In this document: piece after piece, positions 11,833 through 24,016 of the stretch
Layout: each line of letters starts with the position of its first letter
Position numbering within the stretch: position 1 is the first letter of the stretch
Source of the DNA: Escherichia phage Ioannina
DNA length: 45,270 bases
Sequence record: OQ589852.1
Reading direction: 5' to 3' (one strand)
The notes under the pieces: generated by a model
The model's input: the letters and a program-made list of their open reading frames with translations, nothing else
Database searches by the model: none
Told to the model about the DNA's origin: nothing
Position numbers and translations under genes: made by a program

Positions 11833-14475
11833 ATGGCAGATCAAGCGGCAGGCATCACGCTAAAGGCGGATGTTGCACAAATCAGAACGGCGAATACTGT
11901 GCTTGATTCATTCGCACAGAAATCAGAGAACACAGAAAACAAGGTTAAGAAATTAAACAACACCCTCGGCAACTCTAAAAAGGTGACGAGTGATGCCGCT
12001 GGCGGAATGGAAAAGCTGGCGAACGAATCGCATCGAGCAGCCGATGGCATGACGAAACAGGAGCGACTCGCCAACCGGTTAGGCATGTCGACCAAAAACC
12101 TGGGCTTTGCCTCGCGTAACGCCGCATTCCAGTTACAGGATATAGCGGTTACGCTTGAGATGGGTATGCCGGTGCACCGCGTCATGCTTCAGCAGTTACC
12201 ACAGCTTACTGGGGCGTTCGGTGGGTTTGGTAACACGCTGCGTTATGTTGCTGGCTTCCTCGGCCCAGTAGGGATCGGAATTGCAGCACTAACGGCAACG
12301 TTAGGCGTAGGGGTGGCAATTACGTCACGTGCCGAAAACCAGGTAGCAGCGCTTAACAAGACGCTGGCGCTATCCGGTAACATTTCCGGCCTAACTGCAA
12401 ACCAGATCCTGGTGCTATCCGAGAACGCCGAGCGCATGGGCGGGTCGTTCCGCAAGACGCGTGACACAATCCAGGCGCTGGCGGCGGCGGGTGTGAAAGC
12501 GGGTGCAGACTTCGGCACGCTGGCGAAAGTGGTGAATGATTTTGCGAAGGCGTCCAGCCAGCCGATCGAGGATGTGGTCGCGGCGGTGGCGAAGCTGTCT
12601 ACCGACCCGGTAGGTGGCTTGCGAGCATTGGCTGATAAGTATCACGTCGTAAACGAAGCGCAGATCCAGCAGGTGCAGTCACTAGTGACGGCTGGTCGCG
12701 AAACCGAAGCGGTGGCGCTGGCTAACAAAACAGCCGCAGCGTCGTTTACCACTATGACCAATGAGATCAAGTCCAACATGGGTACGCTTGAGCGGTCGAT
12801 GAACGTCGTTACATCGGCAGCTAAATCTATGTGGGATGCCATCCTGGATGTTGGACGCGCGCAGTCCTCGAATGAGTCAGAGATGAAAGCGCGTGAATCA
12901 TTGCAGCGACTGACCACGGCTTACTATGCCGAGATGAAAGCGGTAAACGCTGCCGGTGGGGTGATGACCGAAGCGCAGAAATCGCGTATTAACATGCTTT
13001 ACAGCGAACTGGTCGCCCAGGAGAAGGTGGTGGCGTCGCTCACCCTGCGCAACCGTGCCGAGCGGGACAACGCCAGCGCCGCGGACGCAGCAGCAAAGGC
13101 GAACGAAGAGGCAAACCGCACCGCCCGCGACCGCGCTGCGTTTGAGAAGGAGTACGCAACCAACGCGAAGAGGCGCGCCGACGAGATCGCCCGCCTCAAT
13201 TTGCTTAATAAGCGCGGCGTGATTGACGAGAAAGAGCTTGCCGAGGCGGTGAAGCAGGTAAACGAGCGTTACAAAGACCCCGCCCCGAAGAAGGCCGCCG
13301 CTGTTCGAGTCGATGCCGGGCTGAAAATGCTGGAAGTAGCACGGAGCGAACTGGCACAGCTTCGTGAGTCTGGAAAGCAGATCGAAGCCAACTCCTCGAC
13401 GCAGACCCGAACGCAACGCGCGCAAGCGGCCCTGAACAAGCTGATCGCGGATAATGAGCAGTTAATCGCCGCAAGCAAAGAAAGAGCACTAACGGCAGCC
13501 GAAAAGCAGCAGATGGTCGAATTCGGACGCGTGAAGGAAGTACGCGAGCAGATCGTCGAAGAAGCCAAATTGCTGGACGCGAAAGAGAAGCAGGTCAAGG
13601 CGCACGTGCAGATCGACGCCTTCGTTAAGAACCAGAACGCCGAGCTAAAAGCCACCGCGGCGGGCTATGCGCTTTCCACTCGCGAAGCGGCAAACCTGCG
13701 TGAAGAATTGCAGCTAATTGACCGCCTGAAGCGGGTGGGCGCTAGTGATACCGATATTGATCTGGCGGTGTCTAAACTGCGCGAAGTGCAGGAAGCACAG
13801 ACCGGTGCTAACGCCTCACTATGGGATGGATTCAGCCGTGGGCTTAAGGATAGCGTGGATGAAATGGGTAACGGCTATACGCAGATGGTATCGGCAACGA
13901 AATTTACATTCGGCGCTATGATGGACACGATGAATGAATTTTTCGAGACTGGTAAATTCAACGCGAAGGAAATGATTAAATCCATCCTGAGCGAATTTAT
14001 CAAGCTGGCTACCTCGCAGGCGTTCAAGTCCGTAATCAACGCATTCGGCGGTGACGGTGGGAAGAATGGTCTGTTCGGGGCAATCTTCTCCGGTCTGACG
14101 AAGAATGCCGACGGAGGAGCGTACGCTGGCGGCAACCTGTCCGCATATTCCGGTCAGATCGTAAGCCAGCCAACCTTTTTCAATTACGGCGTTAAGGCGT
14201 TCGCTAACGGCGCGGGATTGATGGGTGAGGCTGGGCCGGAGGCCATCATGCCGCTGAAGCGCGGGCCGGACGGTAAACTGGGCGTTGCCGCAAGTGGGGC
14301 TGGTGGTGGAATCGTCGTGACAACGAACGTGAACATGGGTACAGGGCAGGCTTACACCAGCGTTAAAGGGACCGACCCGCGAATGGGGCAGGTATTCGGC
14401 AAGCAGATCACGGAAGCGGTTAAGGCCGAAATCGTGAAAGCGACTAAACCAGGTGGAGTACTTTACAAACGATGA
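11833..14475 (+). CDS. tail tape measure protein
   Basis: 880 aa, long Ala/Gln/Glu-rich coiled coil, Gly-rich C-terminal part; downstream of G/GT. Confidence 0.9.
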   Translation: MADQAAGITLKADVAQIRTANTVLDSFAQKSENTENKVKKLNNTLGNSKKVTSDAAGGMEKLANESHRAADGMTKQERLANRLGMSTKNLGFASRNAAFQLQDIAVTLEMGMPVHRVMLQQLPQLTGAFGGFGNTLRYVAGFLGPVGIGIAALTATLGVGVAITSRAENQVAALNKTLALSGNISGLTANQILVLSENAERMGGSFRKTRDTIQALAAAGVKAGADFGTLAKVVNDFAKASSQPIEDVVAAVAKLSTDPVGGLRALADKYHVVNEAQIQQVQSLVTAGRETEAVALANKTAAASFTTMTNEIKSNMGTLERSMNVVTSAAKSMWDAILDVGRAQSSNESEMKARESLQRLTTAYYAEMKAVNAAGGVMTEAQKSRINMLYSELVAQEKVVASLTLRNRAERDNASAADAAAKANEEANRTARDRAAFEKEYATNAKRRADEIARLNLLNKRGVIDEKELAEAVKQVNERYKDPAPKKAAAVRVDAGLKMLEVARSELAQLRESGKQIEANSSTQTRTQRAQAALNKLIADNEQLIAASKERALTAAEKQQMVEFGRVKEVREQIVEEAKLLDAKEKQVKAHVQIDAFVKNQNAELKATAAGYALSTREAANLREELQLIDRLKRVGASDTDIDLAVSKLREVQEAQTGANASLWDGFSRGLKDSVDEMGNGYTQMVSATKFTFGAMMDTMNEFFETGKFNAKEMIKSILSEFIKLATSQAFKSVINAFGGDGGKNGLFGAIFSGLTKNADGGAYAGGNLSAYSGQIVSQPTFFNYGVKAFANGAGLMGEAGPEAIMPLKRGPDGKLGVAASGAGGGIVVTTNVNMGTGQAYTSVKGTDPRMGQVFGKQITEAVKAEIVKATKPGGVLYKR

Positions 14476-14480
14476 TAAAA

Positions 14481-14510
14481 TGGCCCTCACACACAACGTG
14501 AGGGCTTTTT
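14481..14510 (+). terminator. rho-independent terminator
   Basis: GCCCTCAC-loop-GTGAGGGC followed by TTTTTT. Confidence 0.65.
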
Positions 14511-14511
14511 T

Positions 14512-15111
14512 ATGGCACAAGGTACAATCACAGTGACGAATGGTAGTAAGACCGTCACAGGCGCGGGCACAGCGTTTTTAAGCGCATTGGGTAAGGTATT
14601 CGTGCTGGCCACCATCGACGGCAACGACTACATTGCTAAAATCGCGTCATTCAACTCTAACACTTCAATCACACTGGTGGACAATTGGCCCGGACCGACT
14701 AAATCCGGCGCTGCATACGACTTGATTGAGGCGCACGACCAGCGGGCTAATGAGTGGCCCTACTATTGGCATATGCAATTGCAAGGCGGTGGCGACGTGC
14801 AGTTATCATTCCGCACCGAAGAATTGCAATTTGGCAACGGGTACGGGCAGAACATCTCAGATGGGCCGAACGCCGAGACGAAACAATTCCCGATCCAGTT
14901 TGTAGGCTTGACTAACGACAAGTGGAATAACCCTAAGCTGGTCTATAACTTCCTGCGCGCGCATTTTGTAAAGCCGTTTATTGTCACCGCGCCGGATGGG
15001 GAGAAGGGGCTTTACGTTGTAGAGCGGTCGAGCTTGTCGTACACTGACAACGGACACTATACGGCAACCGTATCAGCGACACTTAAAACAGCAATTGGAT
15101 TCGTGCAATGA
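14512..15111 (+). CDS. minor tail protein (gpM position) with fiber-like N-terminal module
   Basis: 199 aa, first gene after tape measure; N-terminus MAQGTITVTNGSKTVTGAGTAF closely resembles the N-terminus of the tail fiber at 21992. Confidence 0.55.
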   Translation: MAQGTITVTNGSKTVTGAGTAFLSALGKVFVLATIDGNDYIAKIASFNSNTSITLVDNWPGPTKSGAAYDLIEAHDQRANEWPYYWHMQLQGGGDVQLSFRTEELQFGNGYGQNISDGPNAETKQFPIQFVGLTNDKWNNPKLVYNFLRAHFVKPFIVTAPDGEKGLYVVERSSLSYTDNGHYTATVSATLKTAIGFVQ

Positions 15112-15896
15112 ATAAACTTTACCGTGAGGCAACGCGCTTCGACCCGTCCGGGCGCGTTCGACTGATTCACATTGATGCGCAGGACGTCGATCCTGGCGAC
15201 GGCGCTATCGGGGCAGGACACCACTATTTCCACTACTGCTTTATCCCACACACCGCGGAAGATATTGCCGCTGCCGGTGGGGATGAGTCGAAGCTGAAGC
15301 CTAAATCTCTGTTCTTTGACGGACAGGAGTATGAATTTTGGCCCTTTGATTTAACCGGCCTTAATTTCTCCACCTCAACGGCGGCAGATCCGCAGCTAAC
15401 TATCGTCGATATTGGCGGCGTTATCACTCGCCTGTCACTGAATCACGACCAGCTACTGGGCGCAAAGGTTGAGGTTATCGACACGTTTGCGAAGTTCCTG
15501 GACCACGGCGAAGATCCAGACCCAACACAAAAACGCGTACAGGAGTTTTACATTGATTCGCAGGTTGGTCGCAATCCGGGTAGACAAATTACGTTTGCGC
15601 TTTCCTCGCCTGCGGATATGGAAGGGCAGGTGGTCCCGCGCCGCCAGATCATGAATATGTGCGAGTGGGCGCTTAATGGCAAATACGCCAGCGGGGACGG
15701 GTGTACGTGGAATCTGGCGGCCCCCGGCATCAAGTATTACGACGAGCGGGGCAACGAAGTCATAGCGATGAACATGGACCGCTGCGGTGGCTGTTTGTCA
15801 GACTGTTATCTTCGTTTTGGTCAGGGGCTGGCTGACCCTAAATCGGCAGTGCTGGACTTCGGCGGCTTCCCCGGATCTAAACTTATCAAGGGGTAA
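15108..15896 (+). CDS. minor tail protein L-like
   Basis: 262 aa; C-terminal Cys cluster (RCGGCLSDCY) as in lambda gpL; synteny M-L-K-I-J. Confidence 0.65.
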   Translation: MNKLYREATRFDPSGRVRLIHIDAQDVDPGDGAIGAGHHYFHYCFIPHTAEDIAAAGGDESKLKPKSLFFDGQEYEFWPFDLTGLNFSTSTAADPQLTIVDIGGVITRLSLNHDQLLGAKVEVIDTFAKFLDHGEDPDPTQKRVQEFYIDSQVGRNPGRQITFALSSPADMEGQVVPRRQIMNMCEWALNGKYASGDGCTWNLAAPGIKYYDERGNEVIAMNMDRCGGCLSDCYLRFGQGLADPKSAVLDFGGFPGSKLIKG

Positions 15897-15898
15897 TC

Positions 15899-16639
15899 AT
15901 GTTAACTAAGAAAGTGAGAAGTGAGATTACCGCTCATGTCGCGTCTTGTCTGCCTGAAGAGGCCTGCGGGCTTGTCGTCATGGTCGGGCGCAAGCAGGTT
16001 TTCGTACCCTGCCTGAACGTGTTCGAAGACCCCACCGGCGCGCGCACCAGGAAAGACGCATTCACTATCAGTGATATGGCATGGATGGATGCCGAAGATA
16101 TGGGCGAAGTCGTACGCGTGGTGCACTCGCACCCCGGACAGCGCGAACTAACACCATCGTTAGGCGACGTCAACGGATGCAACGGCAGCGGCATTACCTG
16201 GACCATCGTTAACGAGTTTGGCGACCTTATCGAGATAGACCCGGAAGACCCGCCGCTGGTAGGCCGCCGTTTTGTGCTGGGTATTACTGACTGCTACGGC
16301 CTCGTCATGGACTGGCACAAGAAGAATGGCGTAAACCTGCCGGACTTCCGCGTGCCGTATAACTGGTGGGAGAGCGGGGAGAATCTCTACATGGACAACT
16401 GGTATAGCGCCGGTTTCCGTGAATGCGCTGAGAACACCCCAGGCGCAATGGTCATCATGCAGATTAGCTCCGAGGTGCCAAACCACGCAGGGATCTACCT
16501 TCCGGGCGACCAACTGCTACACCACATCTACGGCAGCTTGTCCAGTGTTATCCCGTTCCGGGCAGGCTTTTTCCGTGAAAATGTGGTTAAATGGGTAAGA
16601 CACAAAGACCTACCGGAGAAAATTGCGATATGGCAATGA
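15899..16639 (+). CDS. tail assembly protein K-like (JAMM/MPN plus NlpC/P60-like)
   Basis: 246 aa; HSHPG JAMM-type metal motif; position between L-like and I-like genes. Confidence 0.7.
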   Translation: MLTKKVRSEITAHVASCLPEEACGLVVMVGRKQVFVPCLNVFEDPTGARTRKDAFTISDMAWMDAEDMGEVVRVVHSHPGQRELTPSLGDVNGCNGSGITWTIVNEFGDLIEIDPEDPPLVGRRFVLGITDCYGLVMDWHKKNGVNLPDFRVPYNWWESGENLYMDNWYSAGFRECAENTPGAMVIMQISSEVPNHAGIYLPGDQLLHHIYGSLSSVIPFRAGFFRENVVKWVRHKDLPEKIAIWQ

Positions 16640-17247
16640 CCACGTTTAAATTATACGGCGTCTTAGGACGCCGTTTTGGTAAAGAGCATAAGCTGGACTG
16701 TTTCACACCAGGCGAGGGAATTACCGGTCTGTGTGTGAAATTGCCCGGCTTACAGGAATTTTTAATGTCTGCGCACCTGGACAATATGATGTTCAAAGTG
16801 CGTAAAGGCGGCCACACAATGGGAAGCACCGATGAACTGGGCGAATCCCACGGCAACCGCGTCATTACCATCGCGCCAGTTATGACGGGTGCAAAAAGCG
16901 GCTTAGGCCAATTGCTGGCTGGCGTGGCTATCGTAGTAGCCTCGTTCTATACGGGTGGTCTTGCAACTGCCGCTTTCGGAGCTTCCGCCGCCACCGCTGC
17001 CGCGATCGGGACCGCCACATTCTCATTCGGTATGTCAATGGCGCTGGGTGGTGTTATGCAGCTACTATCACCGCAACCGAAAGGATTGCAGACACGCCAG
17101 GATGTTGATAACAAAGCATCGTACGCGTTCGGCGGGCCAGTAAACACGACTGCGCAAGGGACCGCACTTGGTGTATTATGGGGCGAGCGTGAGATCGGCG
17201 GCGCTATTATTTCTGCCGGTATCGTAACTGAGGATTTACACGAATGA
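16591..17247 (+). CDS. tail assembly protein I-like
   Basis: Gly/Ala-rich hydrophobic C-terminal half; overlaps the K-like gene; the true start may be the downstream Met (MAMTTFKLYG). Confidence 0.55.
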   Translation: MGKTQRPTGENCDMAMTTFKLYGVLGRRFGKEHKLDCFTPGEGITGLCVKLPGLQEFLMSAHLDNMMFKVRKGGHTMGSTDELGESHGNRVITIAPVMTGAKSGLGQLLAGVAIVVASFYTGGLATAAFGASAATAAAIGTATFSFGMSMALGGVMQLLSPQPKGLQTRQDVDNKASYAFGGPVNTTAQGTALGVLWGEREIGGAIISAGIVTEDLHE

Positions 17248-20200
17248 CTATCGTCTATTCCGTAACGGGCCATAAGGGCGGTGGCGGGAAACAGCATACC
17301 CCGCAAGAAACACCCGACAGCCTGCACTCGCTGGCTAAAATCCGCATTCTGCTAGCACTGGGAGAAGGGGAATTTGAAGGAATCCCGTCGGCAGCCGAGC
17401 TACGCAAGCGTGTCTATCTGGACGGCACGCCGATCATGAACGAGGATAACTCGGAAAACTTCCCTGGCGCGCGCGTTGAGTTCCGCCCTGGCACACAGCA
17501 CCAGGACGTGATTCACGGATTTTCAGCCGTGGAAAGCGAGTCGTCGGTAAACGTCAAGCTGGAGCAGGGCGCACCGTGGGTACGTCAAATCACCGACACC
17601 AGTCTGGACGCGGTGCGCATTCGTATTGGCATTCCTGCGTTGTACACCAACGAAGATAACGGCGACCTGGTTGGTGGGCGTATCGACTATAAGATCGTGG
17701 TGTACACCGACAACGCCGATCCGCGTGAGTTTGCATTCGCTGCCGTTGGTAAAACAATGTCGCTGTATGAGCGCGACCACCGCATCGAATTACCGTCGAA
17801 CGTTAACACCGGCTGGCGCGTCGAAGTGCACCGCATCACCGCAGACTCCACCTCGGCGAAAGTGGTAAACGATATTCGCGTACAATCTATCACCGAGATA
17901 ATCGACGCCCGTTTGCGCTACCCGCTAACCGCGTTGCTGTTCGTTGAGTTTGATGCGAAGGCTTTCCAGGATATCCCGCGCGTGTCTATCAAGTGCAAAG
18001 GCCGCAAAGTGCTGATCCCGACCAACTACGACCCGATCGCACATACCTATAGCGGCGACTGGGACGGCACTTTCAAGCGTGCATGGACGGATAACCCTGC
18101 GTGGCACTGGTACGATATTTGTATTACGGAACGCTTCGGCCTCGGTCGTCGCATCAAGCCGCAGATGCTAAACCGCTATGCGCTTTACCAGATTGCACAA
18201 CGCTGCGATCAGATGGTTAGTGACGGCAACGGCGGACAAGAAATACGGTTTAAGAATGATATGTACATACAGTCGCAGACCGACGCATGGACCGTTCTGA
18301 AGGACTTAGCCGCCATCTTCGCCGGAATGACCTGGTGGGGCAATCAGATGCTGAATATTGTCAGTGACCAACCAGTCGCTGCGGTTTCGCACACCATTAC
18401 GAATGCCTCCGTTATTGATGGGCGATTCGATTATGCGTCTGGCAGCCAGAAGACTCGCTATTCAACATTCGCGGTGGCATACGGCAATCCGGCTAACCAC
18501 TACGATGACGCAATCGCAACGGGCCAGCGCGTGGAACTGGTGCGCCGCCACAAGATTAACCGCCTTGATATTACGGCGATCGGCTGTACGCGTGAATCTG
18601 AAGCGCAACGCCGCGGTCACTGGGCGCTTATTTCAAACCAGCTTGACCAGCAGGTTAGCTTTAAAGTAGGTATGGAAGGTCTGTTCTTCATTCCGGGGAG
18701 CGTGGTCGCTATCGCCGACACCAACATTTCCGGCGGTTTCGAGATTCGCGGCGGTCGCTTACTGGAAGACCCAGGCACGCGCACGGTGCTTAACACAGAC
18801 GAAGAAATCACATTCCGCCCAGGTGATAAATTCCTGGTGCGCACTGCGAACGGTAGTGTCGAGACTCGCGCAATATCAAGCGTCAACGGCAACAAGGTTA
18901 CGTTATCCAGTGCCCTGGACGCAGACCCGATCCCGTTCCAGCCGTTTTGCGTCGACGGTGATGATATTCAGGTGCAGAAGTTCCGCATCACCGATCTGGA
19001 GTATGACGACGCAACCAGCACTTTCTCGGTGCGCGGGATTGAGTACAACGACAGCAAATATGATGCCGTTGATAATGGCGCTCGTCTTGATCCTGGCATC
19101 TTTACGCAAATGCCGGACGGTGTGCTGAAGGGGCCGGAATCCGTAACCATTACCCCGTCGCAGATTTCAAGCCAGGGTCAGTTAATCACCAACGTGGATA
19201 TTGTCTTTCCACCGGTGAAAAATGCCGTTGTATATGAAATCCAGTGGCGAAGGACCAGCCTTCAGAATATGGCGTTGCAGTGGGGTAACGACTGGGTAAA
19301 CTTGCCGCGTACGCCGTCGAACGGTGCACACATCCCCAACGTGTTCTCCGGTAACTACCAGGCGCGCGTCCGCGCAATCGGTATGGGTGAAATCTCATCC
19401 CCGTGGGTAGAGTCTGCCATCACGCCGATCGAGGGTCGTTTAGGTGGGCTGAATGCGCCAATCATTACGGCGGCAGTTTCCGGTTTGCATCAGATCTTGT
19501 GGAAGTGGAATCACAACAACGCTGCGACCGATATTTCATACACAGAGCTTGAAGTGCGCAAGCCAGGGACTGAAGAGTGGCACTTCCTCACTAACGTGCC
19601 GTACCCAGGCGCGGAGTACGCGCAGACTTCGCTTGAGTTCGGGATTTACCAGCAGTTGCGAGCGCGCGTAGCAGATAAAATCGGCAACCTGTCCGATTGG
19701 TCCGCACCGTTTGAAGGCCAGGTGAGCGATAAAGTTGACGACTACATGAAGGGACTCGACGATGAGTTTCTTACTTCTGAAGACGGCAAGCACTTCCAGG
19801 AACAGATCGACACGTTCCCGCAAGGCATTTACGAGTCAATGCTTACGGACGCGCAGCAGTTGCTTAACGCACGTGCCGAGTATCAAGGTATTTACGCCGA
19901 GATCAAAGTGGCCTATAACGTTGCTGCCGATGCGCACCAGGCGGTCGCTGAACTGGAAACGCTGATCGGCACGCGCCTTGATGATGCGGAAGCCGCAATC
20001 CATACGCTACAGACTGCGCAGAGCACACACGAACAGGCGTTCGCTCAGTACCAGCAAACGGTGTCAGCTAAGTTTGGCGATCAGGAAGCCGCAATCCAGT
20101 CAGTGCAAACGGCAACGAGTGATGTAGCCAGCGCTCTGGCGACCTACAAAACACAGGTAGCCGCGCAGTTCGGGCAACAGTCCGCCGCGATCGAGCAGAA

Positions 20201-20690
20201 AATGACGTCTACGTTTAACCACTCTGGTGGTAACGCAACCTACAGCCTGAAAGCTGGAGTTACGTACAACGGGACGTATTATGATGCCGGTATGCAGCTT
20301 TCGGTAGTTGCCGAAGGGAACTCGGTTAAATCGCGCATCGCGTTCAAGGCGGACCAGTTCTACATCATGCACCCGTCGAACGGTACGCTATCCTCCGCGT
20401 TCATCGTTGACGGCGGGCAGGTGTACATCGACACGGCCCGAATCAAGAACGCGTCCATTAACTTTGCGCAGATCACGGACACGCTGCAATCCAACAACTG
20501 GCAGCCTGGCAGCCAGGGGTGGCGAATCGCGAAGGATGGCGGCGCGGAGTTTAACAACGTGACAATCCGCGGCAACGTGTATGCGCAGACTGGTAACTTC
20601 GGTTTTTCAAGTGGGTCGGTACAAATCGACTGGTCGGGGGTAAACGTGCCGTTGCCTGGCGGAGGGCGGGTTAAAGTGGGGGTGTGGTAA
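17244..20690 (+). CDS. host specificity / tip attachment protein J-like (central tail fiber)
   Basis: 1148 aa, last gene of the M-L-K-I-J series; size and position match lambda gpJ. Confidence 0.85.
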   Translation: MTIVYSVTGHKGGGGKQHTPQETPDSLHSLAKIRILLALGEGEFEGIPSAAELRKRVYLDGTPIMNEDNSENFPGARVEFRPGTQHQDVIHGFSAVESESSVNVKLEQGAPWVRQITDTSLDAVRIRIGIPALYTNEDNGDLVGGRIDYKIVVYTDNADPREFAFAAVGKTMSLYERDHRIELPSNVNTGWRVEVHRITADSTSAKVVNDIRVQSITEIIDARLRYPLTALLFVEFDAKAFQDIPRVSIKCKGRKVLIPTNYDPIAHTYSGDWDGTFKRAWTDNPAWHWYDICITERFGLGRRIKPQMLNRYALYQIAQRCDQMVSDGNGGQEIRFKNDMYIQSQTDAWTVLKDLAAIFAGMTWWGNQMLNIVSDQPVAAVSHTITNASVIDGRFDYASGSQKTRYSTFAVAYGNPANHYDDAIATGQRVELVRRHKINRLDITAIGCTRESEAQRRGHWALISNQLDQQVSFKVGMEGLFFIPGSVVAIADTNISGGFEIRGGRLLEDPGTRTVLNTDEEITFRPGDKFLVRTANGSVETRAISSVNGNKVTLSSALDADPIPFQPFCVDGDDIQVQKFRITDLEYDDATSTFSVRGIEYNDSKYDAVDNGARLDPGIFTQMPDGVLKGPESVTITPSQISSQGQLITNVDIVFPPVKNAVVYEIQWRRTSLQNMALQWGNDWVNLPRTPSNGAHIPNVFSGNYQARVRAIGMGEISSPWVESAITPIEGRLGGLNAPIITAAVSGLHQILWKWNHNNAATDISYTELEVRKPGTEEWHFLTNVPYPGAEYAQTSLEFGIYQQLRARVADKIGNLSDWSAPFEGQVSDKVDDYMKGLDDEFLTSEDGKHFQEQIDTFPQGIYESMLTDAQQLLNARAEYQGIYAEIKVAYNVAADAHQAVAELETLIGTRLDDAEAAIHTLQTAQSTHEQAFAQYQQTVSAKFGDQEAAIQSVQTATSDVASALATYKTQVAAQFGQQSAAIEQKMTSTFNHSGGNATYSLKAGVTYNGTYYDAGMQLSVVAEGNSVKSRIAFKADQFYIMHPSNGTLSSAFIVDGGQVYIDTARIKNASINFAQITDTLQSNNWQPGSQGWRIAKDGGAEFNNVTIRGNVYAQTGNFGFSSGSVQIDWSGVNVPLPGGGRVKVGVW

Positions 20691-20696
20691 AACGCA

Positions 20697-20718
20697 AGGG
20701 GCCGTTTGGCCCCTTTCT
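20697..20718. terminator. bidirectional rho-independent terminator (AAGGGGCC-loop-GGCCCCTTT)
   Basis: Same stem family as 5002-5025 and 25167-25190; between convergent J and the minus-strand gene. Confidence 0.7.
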
Positions 20719-21692
20719 TAATACATATTAGGAAGGACAATCAGCGGTGTTGGTACGACAACATTGCGGTTAGGCATCTGGAATTGCTGCCGTGAATAGT
20801 TGCCAATGACGCGGTTTTTCGCTGCACCAACGACGCTACCCGCCATGCGTATCCCGTTCATGCGTACGTGGTTATAACCGCTATTGTTTTCAATAAGCGC
20901 GCCCGTGTATGAAAGCTGAATAAGGCTGTTACCGATATTCTGCCACCCTGCGCTAAGGTCAACCGTCCCGTTAAACACAAACGGCTTATTGACGGTGGAG
21001 AATGTAACCTGGCCTGCGTTGTTGGTCATCGTGATACCGGTTCCGGGGCTTGGCGGTGTGTTATTGAATATAACCAATTCCATGTCAACGGCAGCACCCA
21101 CATCATCAATCCCGCCGTAAGCCGCATTGCGGACGATAATACTGCCTCCATCGAAGCCAACCGACACGTTAGGGTCATCCCAACGGGCGAACGGAACACC
21201 TCCTACCGGCAGCGGCATACTTCCGTTCACATGGACGCGCTGCGCGTAGCGACAGGTCATCAGCCGAGCGACGTTTGATATGGCGGTAAAGTCCGTCGAG
21301 TTAGCCACCAGAAGCCCAGCATTACGCGACCCCACCGGCAGCACTTCCATAATCGTTCCCGCCCAGGTTGGAAGCCCGCTATAAGCGCCCAGCGCGTCAG
21401 CACCGTGCAGCGTAATTCCGCCATCACCATTTCGAGATATTGACGTTACAAACATCGGATCGGGTATTACCAGTGTTTGGTCGAACACTTCCACCACTTC
21501 AACGGGATTAGTTAGCACGACTATAAGCTGCGATCCAGGCGTTAGCGGAGTATTGACTGTTAGCGTCTTGTCAGATTGGCAGCGCTGATTAAAATTGGTA
21601 CAAAAAGACGGAGCACGAAGCCCCGCCGTAATTTCCATTCTTGGACGTCCATCGTTGTATTCGATAAGGATACCTGCACCCATAATTACCAC
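20718..21692 (-). CDS. hypothetical beta-rich protein (possible receptor-binding or secreted partner of the lipoprotein)
   Basis: 324 aa, Gly/Asn/Thr/Val-rich; second gene of a minus-strand cassette antisense to the tail genes; no motif recognised. Confidence 0.5.
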   Translation of the reverse strand: MVIMGAGILIEYNDGRPRMEITAGLRAPSFCTNFNQRCQSDKTLTVNTPLTPGSQLIVVLTNPVEVVEVFDQTLVIPDPMFVTSISRNGDGGITLHGADALGAYSGLPTWAGTIMEVLPVGSRNAGLLVANSTDFTAISNVARLMTCRYAQRVHVNGSMPLPVGGVPFARWDDPNVSVGFDGGSIIVRNAAYGGIDDVGAAVDMELVIFNNTPPSPGTGITMTNNAGQVTFSTVNKPFVFNGTVDLSAGWQNIGNSLIQLSYTGALIENNSGYNHVRMNGIRMAGSVVGAAKNRVIGNYSRQQFQMPNRNVVVPTPLIVLPNMY

Positions 21693-21991: not shown

Positions 21992-24016
21992 ATGGCAGCG
22001 GGTACACTTAACGTAACAAACAACAGCAAGGCCGTAACGGGGTCGGGCACGACGTTTACGTCATTGAAAGCGGGCGACTTTTTATCGCTGGTGGTGGGGC
22101 AAGTCCCGTACACCGTCGCGATTGAGTCAATCCAGAGCAACACGGCGCTTACGCTGGCGCTGCCGTTTGACGGCCCAACGTCTACCGGTCTGGCGTGGGA
22201 CTCCGTATCCCGCGATACGATGTCGCTGGCGACTATGGGTGTGACCGTACAGGCGCAGAAAGCGCTACGCATGTTGATTGCTGACGAAAGCAACTGGCGA
22301 GCAATCTTCGGCGACGCAGAGCAAATCAGCGTGACACTGCCAAACGGCACGGTTATGCAGGGTATGTCGTGGGGCTATTTGTCCAGCCTTCTAAAAGACG
22401 TCGATCCGGTTGAGCTTCAGAATATTGCCAACCAGGCGGTTAACGCTAAAAACCAGGCTGTAACGGCGAAGAACGACGCCGTGTCTGCTAAGAACGATGC
22501 GCAGACTGCGAAGACTGCCGCAGAAACAGCGCGCACACAGGCCCAGTCGGCTAAGACCGCCGCAGAGTCAGCACGTGACGACGCGCAGACGGCTAAGACT
22601 GCCGCAGAAACAGCACGCACCCAGGCACAGACCGCGAAGACCGCCGCAGAAACCGCCCAGGGTGCGGCGGAAGACGCCCGCGATGAGGCGAAGCAATATG
22701 CAGAGCAAGCCGGAGCACCATATAAGCAGGTATTACAACCGCTACCAGACGTGTGGGTTCCGTTTAACGATTCGCTGGATATGCTCGCAGGCTTCGCGCC
22801 AGGATACAAGACGGTTACGGTAGCCGACGACGAGGTTATTATGCCTAGCGACAAGGTGGTGTCGTTCAAGCGCGCATCAACGGCAACATATATTAACAAG
22901 TCCGGCGAGTTTAAAATCGCAGATATTGACGAGCCGCGGTTCGAGAAATACGGCCTGCTTATCGAAGGCCAGCGCACTAACCACATCACCAACGGGGGCG
23001 CTCCGGCTGCCTGGGGCCGCAGCACATCGGTTGGAGTGGTTACGGGTACAGATGATTTCGGTTTCTTGTATGGAAAGTTTGGTATCGGCCAGGGCGACGT
23101 GGGCAGTACGACTGCGCGTAACCTGGCTTCCGTAACATCAGTAAACAGTCTGGATACTTCCGGCGACGATAAGTATGTAACGGCGTCATGCCGCTTTCGG
23201 TCCGACAAGGATGTACGTCTTCGTGTGCGTTTTGCAGAAGGCGCGGATCAAGGCAGCATAGCTTTCTCTGGCGACGCGTACATTAAATTAAGCGATTTGT
23301 CCGTGTCTAAGACGGGTGTCGCGGCAGACCGCATTACCGTAGAAGTAGAGAAAGACGAAGCCACCGGATGGAATCGTGCGGTGGTAATGCTGCAAGCTAC
23401 CACGGCGCTGGTGAACGCGCAGATCCAGATCTCGCCAGTGAGCAGTTATGCTGCCGGTGATTATATCGAACTGGCAACTCCGCAGGTTGAGTTAGGGATC
23501 GGGGCGTCTTCATATATAATCTCCGGAACATCTCCAACCACACGCGCCAGCGATATGGTGACGGTACCGGCTAACCGCAACCTGTATAACCTGCCGTTTA
23601 CGGTGCTTGTAGAAGCGCACAAGAACTGGTCTAAGGCGCCGAACGCAGCGCCGCGTGTATTCGACACCGGCGGTAATCAATCGGGTGCGGCTATTATCCT
23701 TGGATTCGGGTCTGGCGCTATTGACGGGTATCCGTACTGCAACATCGGCAGTGCTAACGGACGTGTGAGTGAAAACGCAGGGCTTAAGCATATGGTTATG
23801 GGTATGCGTGTGAAAGAAAACCAGAACACTTGCGCGGTGAGTAACGGCACTCTTTCGACCGAATCTAAAACCACATGGACCTACCTGCAAGGGTCTGCAA
23901 CGCTGCGAATCGGCGGGCAGACCACGAACGGAGACAGACACCTGTTCGGGCACGTCCGTAACTTCCGTATCTGGCATAAAGCACTGACCGACTTACAAAT
24001 GGGAGAATTAGTATGA
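21992..24016 (+). CDS. tail fiber protein
   Basis: 674 aa; fiber-type N-terminal module, Ala/Lys/Thr/Gln coiled-coil repeats (AKTAAETARTQAQ x4-5), beta-rich C-terminal domain. Confidence 0.75.
   Translation: MAAGTLNVTNNSKAVTGSGTTFTSLKAGDFLSLVVGQVPYTVAIESIQSNTALTLALPFDGPTSTGLAWDSVSRDTMSLATMGVTVQAQKALRMLIADESNWRAIFGDAEQISVTLPNGTVMQGMSWGYLSSLLKDVDPVELQNIANQAVNAKNQAVTAKNDAVSAKNDAQTAKTAAETARTQAQSAKTAAESARDDAQTAKTAAETARTQAQTAKTAAETAQGAAEDARDEAKQYAEQAGAPYKQVLQPLPDVWVPFNDSLDMLAGFAPGYKTVTVADDEVIMPSDKVVSFKRASTATYINKSGEFKIADIDEPRFEKYGLLIEGQRTNHITNGGAPAAWGRSTSVGVVTGTDDFGFLYGKFGIGQGDVGSTTARNLASVTSVNSLDTSGDDKYVTASCRFRSDKDVRLRVRFAEGADQGSIAFSGDAYIKLSDLSVSKTGVAADRITVEVEKDEATGWNRAVVMLQATTALVNAQIQISPVSSYAAGDYIELATPQVELGIGASSYIISGTSPTTRASDMVTVPANRNLYNLPFTVLVEAHKNWSKAPNAAPRVFDTGGNQSGAAIILGFGSGAIDGYPYCNIGSANGRVSENAGLKHMVMGMRVKENQNTCAVSNGTLSTESKTTWTYLQGSATLRIGGQTTNGDRHLFGHVRNFRIWHKALTDLQMGELV

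Follow-up and report, generated by a model that had tools for sequence, protein, structure and literature searches.

The two tail proteins encoded at 14512-15111 and 21992-24016 of the window, by which we mean the whole stretch of 45,270 nucleotides that was analyzed, begin with homologous copies of one module, a six-stranded beta-barrel of 72 residues. The first protein is a distal tail protein (Dit) with the barrel added to its N-terminus, and the second is a lateral tail fiber. The explanation that we lean towards, with some reserve, is that an old domain transfer gave rise to the two copies, that they now do different jobs, and that the copy on Dit is a decoration which is independent of the fibers.

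The window region is 99% identical to the Dhillonvirus LM40P1; its identity to KarlBarth, JL1 and over 150 further coliphages of this genus is 81-86%. Judged by its sequence, the source phage belongs to Dhillonvirus, and its tail module is lambda-like. The tape measure gene (11833-14475) is directly followed by the gene of a 199-aa protein with a PF05939 domain (14512-15111, plus strand), and then by gpL (262 aa, 15108-15896), gpK (15899-16639), gpI (16591-17247) and a J-like tip protein of 1148 aa (17244-20690). After a gene for a 324-aa protein on the minus strand (20718-21692) comes the lateral tail fiber of 674 aa (21992-24016, plus strand). The 324-aa protein is 82% identical to gp25 of Oekolampad, a receptor-binding protein for which binding to LptDE was shown (Oekolampad LptDE preprint, which concerns the receptor-binding protein only). 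In relatives a small lipoprotein gene follows the gene of the 324-aa protein on the same strand. By similarity, LptD is probably the terminal receptor of the window phage.

Two further observations concern the surroundings of the two genes. The gap between the stop codon of the tape measure and the ATG of Dit (14482-14511) is occupied by a terminator-like hairpin (GGCCCTCAC/GTGAGGGCT followed by T6), and its 3' stem arm provides the sole Shine-Dalgarno-like sequence, GAGGG. The hairpin is kept, with compensatory changes in the stem, in KarlBarth, Oekolampad, bov22_1 and a sister lineage described below; it may attenuate the dosage of the tip genes or control the translation of Dit. Downstream of the fiber gene, the segment 24013-25084 contains an ORF of 85 aa (phrog_1361, function unknown) and an ORF of 247 aa with a TTG start; in KarlBarth two short fiber ORFs are annotated at this position. 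The 247-aa ORF matches the tail fiber profile phrog_1591 only at positions 192-420 of 484, and as the barrel of this profile is located at the N-terminus, this second fiber gene has no anchor module of its own.

A pairwise comparison of the N-termini using BLASTP aligned residues 1-72 of Dit with residues 1-72 of the fiber without a gap. Within this stretch 31 of the 72 residues are identical (43%) and 57% are positives (E=8e-13), whereas no significant alignment was obtained beyond residue 72. The sequence-only reading of this DNA had described a common opening module of about 70 residues followed by complete divergence and had interpreted it as domain shuffling; all three points were borne out, with a homologous module in two otherwise unrelated tail proteins. 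The two barrels are encoded at 14512-14727 and 21992-22207, both on the plus strand. The first 78 residues of both proteins match the N-termini of the same PHROG tail fiber families (phrog_1980, 17834, 28473, 24607, 12714 and 1591), i.e. the N-terminus of Dit matches the family of the fiber and vice versa. When all six reading frames of the window were searched with a hidden Markov model of the module, exactly two copies were found, and no third one.

The two copies share 48% of their nucleotides overall and 31% at third codon positions, which shows that the duplication is old. A recent duplication or repeat and gene conversion were rejected, as the DNA identity is 48% and the two copies show no excess similarity within a genome. 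The paralogs are separated by 21 fixed differences, among them the K-A-G-D-F motif of the fibers. The position aligned with Arg30 of the pyocin side fiber, a residue that is discussed below, is occupied by K26 in the fibers and by G27 in the Dit copy. The Dit barrel of the window shares 43-47% of its residues with the fiber barrels, compared with 28-42% for the Dit barrels of other Dhillonviruses. It may have kept more of the ancestral residues, or an old partial conversion may have taken place.

Identification of the 199-aa protein as a member of the gpM family is based on three agreeing results: the score with PF05939 (Phage_min_tail, residues 86-187, 48.4 bits with a cut-off of 39), the position of the gene after the tape measure, and the tail-tube fold of the AF2 model. 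In the PDB sequence set the protein matches 23gd_B, "Distal tail protein gp20" (E=5.6e-116), and gp37 of phage T1 (9l9p_H, E=5e-12). Chain B of 23gd is identical to gp20 of Oekolampad (Bas18) over residues 1-198. This protein is the ortholog of the window Dit, with the same length of 199 aa, the same two-domain layout and the same gene position, but its barrel is only 74% identical, compared with about 90% for the Dit domain. The entry also contains "Hub protein gp21" and "J-like tail tip protein gp24", and the PDB sequence set holds no fiber chain alongside gp20. A literature search found no publication on PDB 23gd, 10lj or 10xw.

The AF2 model of Dit consists of two domains. Using Foldseek with a PDB library that comprised entries up to April 2026, without 23gd and 25ve, the C-terminal domain matched T1 gp37 (E=4e-5, TMt 0.70) and lambda gpM (8iyk_E, TMt 0.67). 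Confidence of the model is low in a hairpin at residues 85-122, and the pLDDT falls in the linker at residues 73-80 (EAHDQRAN; 14728-14751, plus strand). The extent of this linker is also indicated by the short Dits of a sister lineage (P0005-P0008), which start 2-4 residues upstream of the motif WPYW (residue 82 of the window protein), and the linker therefore comprises about 8 residues. The remaining part, residues 81-199 with the stop codon (14752-15111, plus strand), is the domain with the tail-tube fold according to PF05939, the PDB matches and Foldseek. Taken together, sequence and predicted structure identify the 199-aa protein as a gpM-type Dit with about 80 additional N-terminal residues, and the earlier label "post-tape-measure minor tail protein" was correct, though imprecise. 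The Dits of T1, N15 and the F2 pyocin have 117, 115 and 113 aa, and all of them are without an N-terminal barrel. With its tube-fold domain and an extra small beta-barrel that presumably faces outwards, the window protein has the composition of a decorated Dit. The tube-fold domain is predicted to place the protein in a hexameric ring after the tape measure, between tube and tip, and a protein located by its own tube-fold domain needs no docking module.

For the fiber copy the situation is different. A profile of the module matched the side fiber of the F2 pyocin at residues 5-76 (E=1.7e-9), and as both window copies had been used to build the profile, this match holds for both. [quoted passage not shown] As in the window fiber, the pyocin domain is located at the extreme N-terminus of a trimeric side fiber, and the particle has a J-type central fiber with a coiled-coil shaft. 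Cryo-EM of F pyocins demonstrated that three side-fiber trimers are attached to the central fiber, with the N-terminal domains docked on its trimeric coiled coil (10.64898/2026.02.24.707460; PMC12874032). Of the three barrels in each side-fiber trimer of the F2 pyocin, two touch the shaft (10.64898/2026.02.24.707460). In the F7 pyocin, Arg30, Lys80 and Arg87 lie opposite an acidic segment of the coiled coil (PMC12874032). The two preprints differ in the coiled-coil residues at which they place the contact (10.64898/2026.02.24.707460 versus PMC12874032).

Two of the three F7 contact residues, Lys80 and Arg87, fall in a neck that follows the barrel. In the window fiber this neck comprises residues 73-140 (22208-22411, plus strand). 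It is conserved together with the barrel in fibers and absent from Dit: among the proteins fetched, BLASTP found it directly after the module in 79 fiber representatives and in none of the Dits. The fiber at 21992 therefore shows the complete arrangement of barrel, conserved neck and fiber shaft, whereas the protein at 14512 has the barrel without the neck and is for this reason not classed as an anchor. The module had been described as an attachment module in both proteins. This part of the reading stands for the fiber, because of its homology to the N-terminus of the F2-pyocin side fiber, and it is not supported for Dit, which is positioned by its tube-fold domain and has no neck. The rest of the fiber gene (22412-24016, plus strand) encodes a variable shaft and the distal receptor-binding part, with matches to phrog_1419, phrog_5939 (tail protein) and NF048003. 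The match to NF048003 (GTA_spike_fiber) covers residues 323-519 (22958-23548) with 48.3 bits at a cut-off of 36, and residues 520-667 show a sub-threshold similarity to Laminin_G_3, a concanavalin-like lectin domain.

The candidate docking platform for the fiber module is the helical, coiled-coil-like shaft of the J protein (J residues 851-990; 19794-20213, plus strand). Residues 6-858 of the window J protein match the central fiber of the F2 pyocin with E=2e-226, and residues 892-1100 match residues 977-1185 of the same protein with E=1.4e-19 and gp33 of T1 with E=6e-28. The shaft is conserved in every examined genome with a module-type fiber (89%, 60% and 40% identity). As the module matches the pyocin anchor and the J shaft is homologous and conserved, we infer by analogy that the Dhillonvirus fiber docks on the J shaft, a mode of docking that has been demonstrated for F pyocins only.

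The module belongs to a large family for which no curated model was found in Pfam, in the NCBIfam copies searched or in PADLOC-independent scans. With a threshold of E<=1e-3, a profile of six module sequences matched 8,657 of 1.84 billion cluster representatives. A word-indexed homolog search returned 9 proteins with the full-length Dit and none with the 78-aa module, the latter because of a limit of the index. Of the best 153 module carriers, 84 have a single copy, which is at the N-terminus or close to it. Tail fibers (144-858 aa) make up nearly all of this class, and in them a conserved neck of 65 aa follows the barrel; the Dhillonvirus Dits also belong to the class. Another 68 of the 153 carriers contain 2-13 copies in tandem. 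In the proteins P0010-P0021, P0051 and P0056 the barrel is found either as 2-13 tandem repeats, in proteins of 1,000-2,900 aa with PKD domains, or as a pair, in proteins of about 360 aa with a C-terminal SU10-adaptor domain. A fusion of the module with Dit was found only in the Dhillonvirus clade among the best 153 carriers. Cultured phages with the fiber version are N15 (gp25), HK225, ES18 (gp33), Midgardsormr38, Nickievirus and phiES15. The fibers of N15, ES18 and HK225 (phrog_1980) have the same barrel and neck, and their barrels are 42-47% identical to the Dit barrel and 55% to the fiber barrel of the window. Unlike the window phage, these phages have the module on the fiber only. In the PDB sequence set the module profile matched only the F2-pyocin side fiber and 23gd_B.

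In the explanation that we prefer, the barrel and the neck of the fiber would form the virion anchor, and the fiber trimers would most likely dock on the coiled-coil shaft of the J-like central fiber, below the tip cone. In Dit the barrel alone would be grafted to the N-terminus of the tube-fold domain by the short linker. In Ur-lambda, residues K2 and W6 of gpM are exposed on the outside of the gpV/gpM junction and contact the collar of the side fibers there (PMC12617516). With an N-terminus exposed at the collar and a linker of about 8 residues, the Dit barrel should be found at the collar position, far from the J shaft. From this geometry we infer that six Dit barrels would form a crown at the junction of tube and tip, on top of the cone. 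The crown is most likely a peripheral decoration independent of the fibers, similar to the OB domain of pb9 from phage T5, and it would stabilize the junction and/or adhere weakly to the cell surface. The OB domain of pb9 is described as a decoration which possibly binds surface carbohydrate, and pb9 binds only tube-forming proteins (PMC10038345). Other decorated Dits are pb9 itself, with a tube-fold and an OB domain, and the Dit of phage Chi. In contrast to pb9, the window Dit has its barrel at the N-terminus; this barrel comes from another sequence family and is a paralog of the phage's own fiber anchor.

The selection pattern bears on the question whether the crown is exposed or tightly packed. 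Among Dhillonviruses the Dit barrel is 61-89% identical, compared with 87-95% for the Dit domain. The dN/dS ratio was 0.10-0.70 for the Dit barrel, 0.03-0.07 for the Dit core and 0.05-0.14 for the fiber barrel, with dS being saturated in several of the comparisons, and the Dit copy evolved 3-10 times faster than the fiber copy. An alternative, which we regard as unlikely, is that the Dit barrel is a purely structural clamp: it would pack on the last ring of the tail tube or on the N-terminal helix of gpL and make the junction rigid, without a role in host contact or fiber binding. The barrel is under purifying selection and kept in all Dhillonvirus Dits examined, and the linker is short, which agrees with such a role. 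A further point in its favor comes from the sister lineage, where gpL has 415 aa instead of 262 aa due to an insertion of about 150 aa after residue 57 (L002:10001-11609, L005:10001-11615), which suggests that something is wanted at the periphery of the upper cone. This insertion shows a weak similarity to the R4C "Megatron" protein at residues 502-617 (E=1.7e-4). It appears to be another way of decorating the upper tip cone, which suggests that the periphery of the upper cone is a permissive site for add-on domains. However, the Dit barrel changes much faster than the Dit core, with dN/dS values up to 0.7, which is easier to reconcile with an exposed surface than with a tight, conserved interface. 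Moreover, the clamp overlaps with the decorated Dit that we prefer.

A second alternative is a mixed collar, in which the six Dit barrels provide the docking site for the lateral fibers and the fiber barrels slot between or onto them, forming one ring at the junction of tube and tip. Its proposed analogs are the 12-mer StfN collar of Ur-lambda and the p132 collar of T5. Several facts speak for it: the two copies share fold and sequence family, the N-terminus of Dit is located where the fiber collar of lambda binds, and one barrel per fiber trimer is unused in the F2 pyocin. In addition, all Dhillonvirus records with a hit for the M protein among the 198 tblastn matches listed contain both copies, except TH11 with one place. 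StfN is an N-terminal side-fiber domain that fixes the fiber to the tail, at the gpV/gpM junction beside the N-terminus of Dit. It differs from the module in having a six-stranded sheet with a helix and in forming a 12-mer collar, and the Dit of lambda is without an extra domain; the module profile matched no Stf chain in the PDB.

The distribution of the two copies argues against the mixed collar and makes it a rather improbable solution. Metagenomic contigs of a sister lineage (L002-L006) show the same architecture of tape measure, K, I and J as the window. Their Dits have 122-125 aa, are 64-68% identical to the Dit domain of the window protein and contain no barrel. Their fibers nevertheless carry a barrel which is 83% identical to that of the window and 96-97% identical to those of Oekolampad and KarlBarth (dN 0.02-0.03). 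The fiber barrel can therefore do without the Dit barrel. In principle the insertion in gpL of the same lineage could replace a docking role of the Dit barrel, a possibility that weakens this argument. The same combination was found in N15, with the module on the gp25 fiber and a plain Dit of 115 aa (gene 17), and in the F2 pyocin, with a module-type fiber and a plain Dit of 113 aa. In bov22_1 the Dit barrel is only 61-68% identical to the others, whereas the fiber barrel shares 94-96% of its residues with the fiber barrels of KarlBarth and Oekolampad and 82% with that of the window; co-variation or co-evolution of the two copies was not found. The lack of a fiber chain together with gp20 in the PDB sequence set also counts against the mixed collar. 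The earlier suggestion of a common docking site or partner for the two proteins is thus not supported by these results: a plain Dit goes together with the fiber copy in the sister lineage, in N15 and in the F2 pyocin, and the copies do not co-vary.

A further point counts against the explanation that we prefer. In the F2 pyocin one barrel of each trimer is off the shaft and hence free for another partner. An improbable variant would make use of it, with the Dit barrels as a hexameric collar encoded in cis that captures the fiber barrel left unused on the J shaft. If this were true, each lateral fiber would be held at two points, the shaft and the collar. Movement of a fiber upon contact with the host could then reach the junction of tube and tip and be part of the trigger for infection, and in the sister lineage the insertion in gpL would serve as the second anchor instead. 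The remaining idea, that both barrels bind one tail component such as J or L at equivalent sites, is very improbable in spite of the homology of the domains and the proven function of the fiber-type barrel as a protein-protein docking domain in F pyocins, since the tube-fold domain determines where Dit is located, a barrel tethered by a linker of this length at the top of the cone should not be able to reach the distal coiled coil of the central fiber, the fixed paralog differences include the K-A-G-D-F motif of the fibers, and the neck with the F7 contacts is missing in Dit.

Both decorated Dits and the shuffling of domains between phage tail proteins are well known, and the structure of an ortholog has already been deposited. 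In the accessible literature we did not find a statement of the paralogy between a Dit barrel and a fiber anchor or of the size of this domain family without a model. The results describe ordinary modular evolution of a tail and reveal no new mechanism. For phage engineering they suggest that residues 1-140 of the fiber should be kept together with the cognate J shaft when fibers are swapped, and that the Dit barrel can probably be altered without loss of the fibers. The window provides a clear case in which a fiber-anchor domain was re-used as a decoration on a core protein of the tail ring, and it links three separately annotated items, the N-terminus of the Dhillonvirus Dit, the conserved N-termini of many side fibers from coliphages and Salmonella phages, and the solved anchor of the F pyocins, in one large family.
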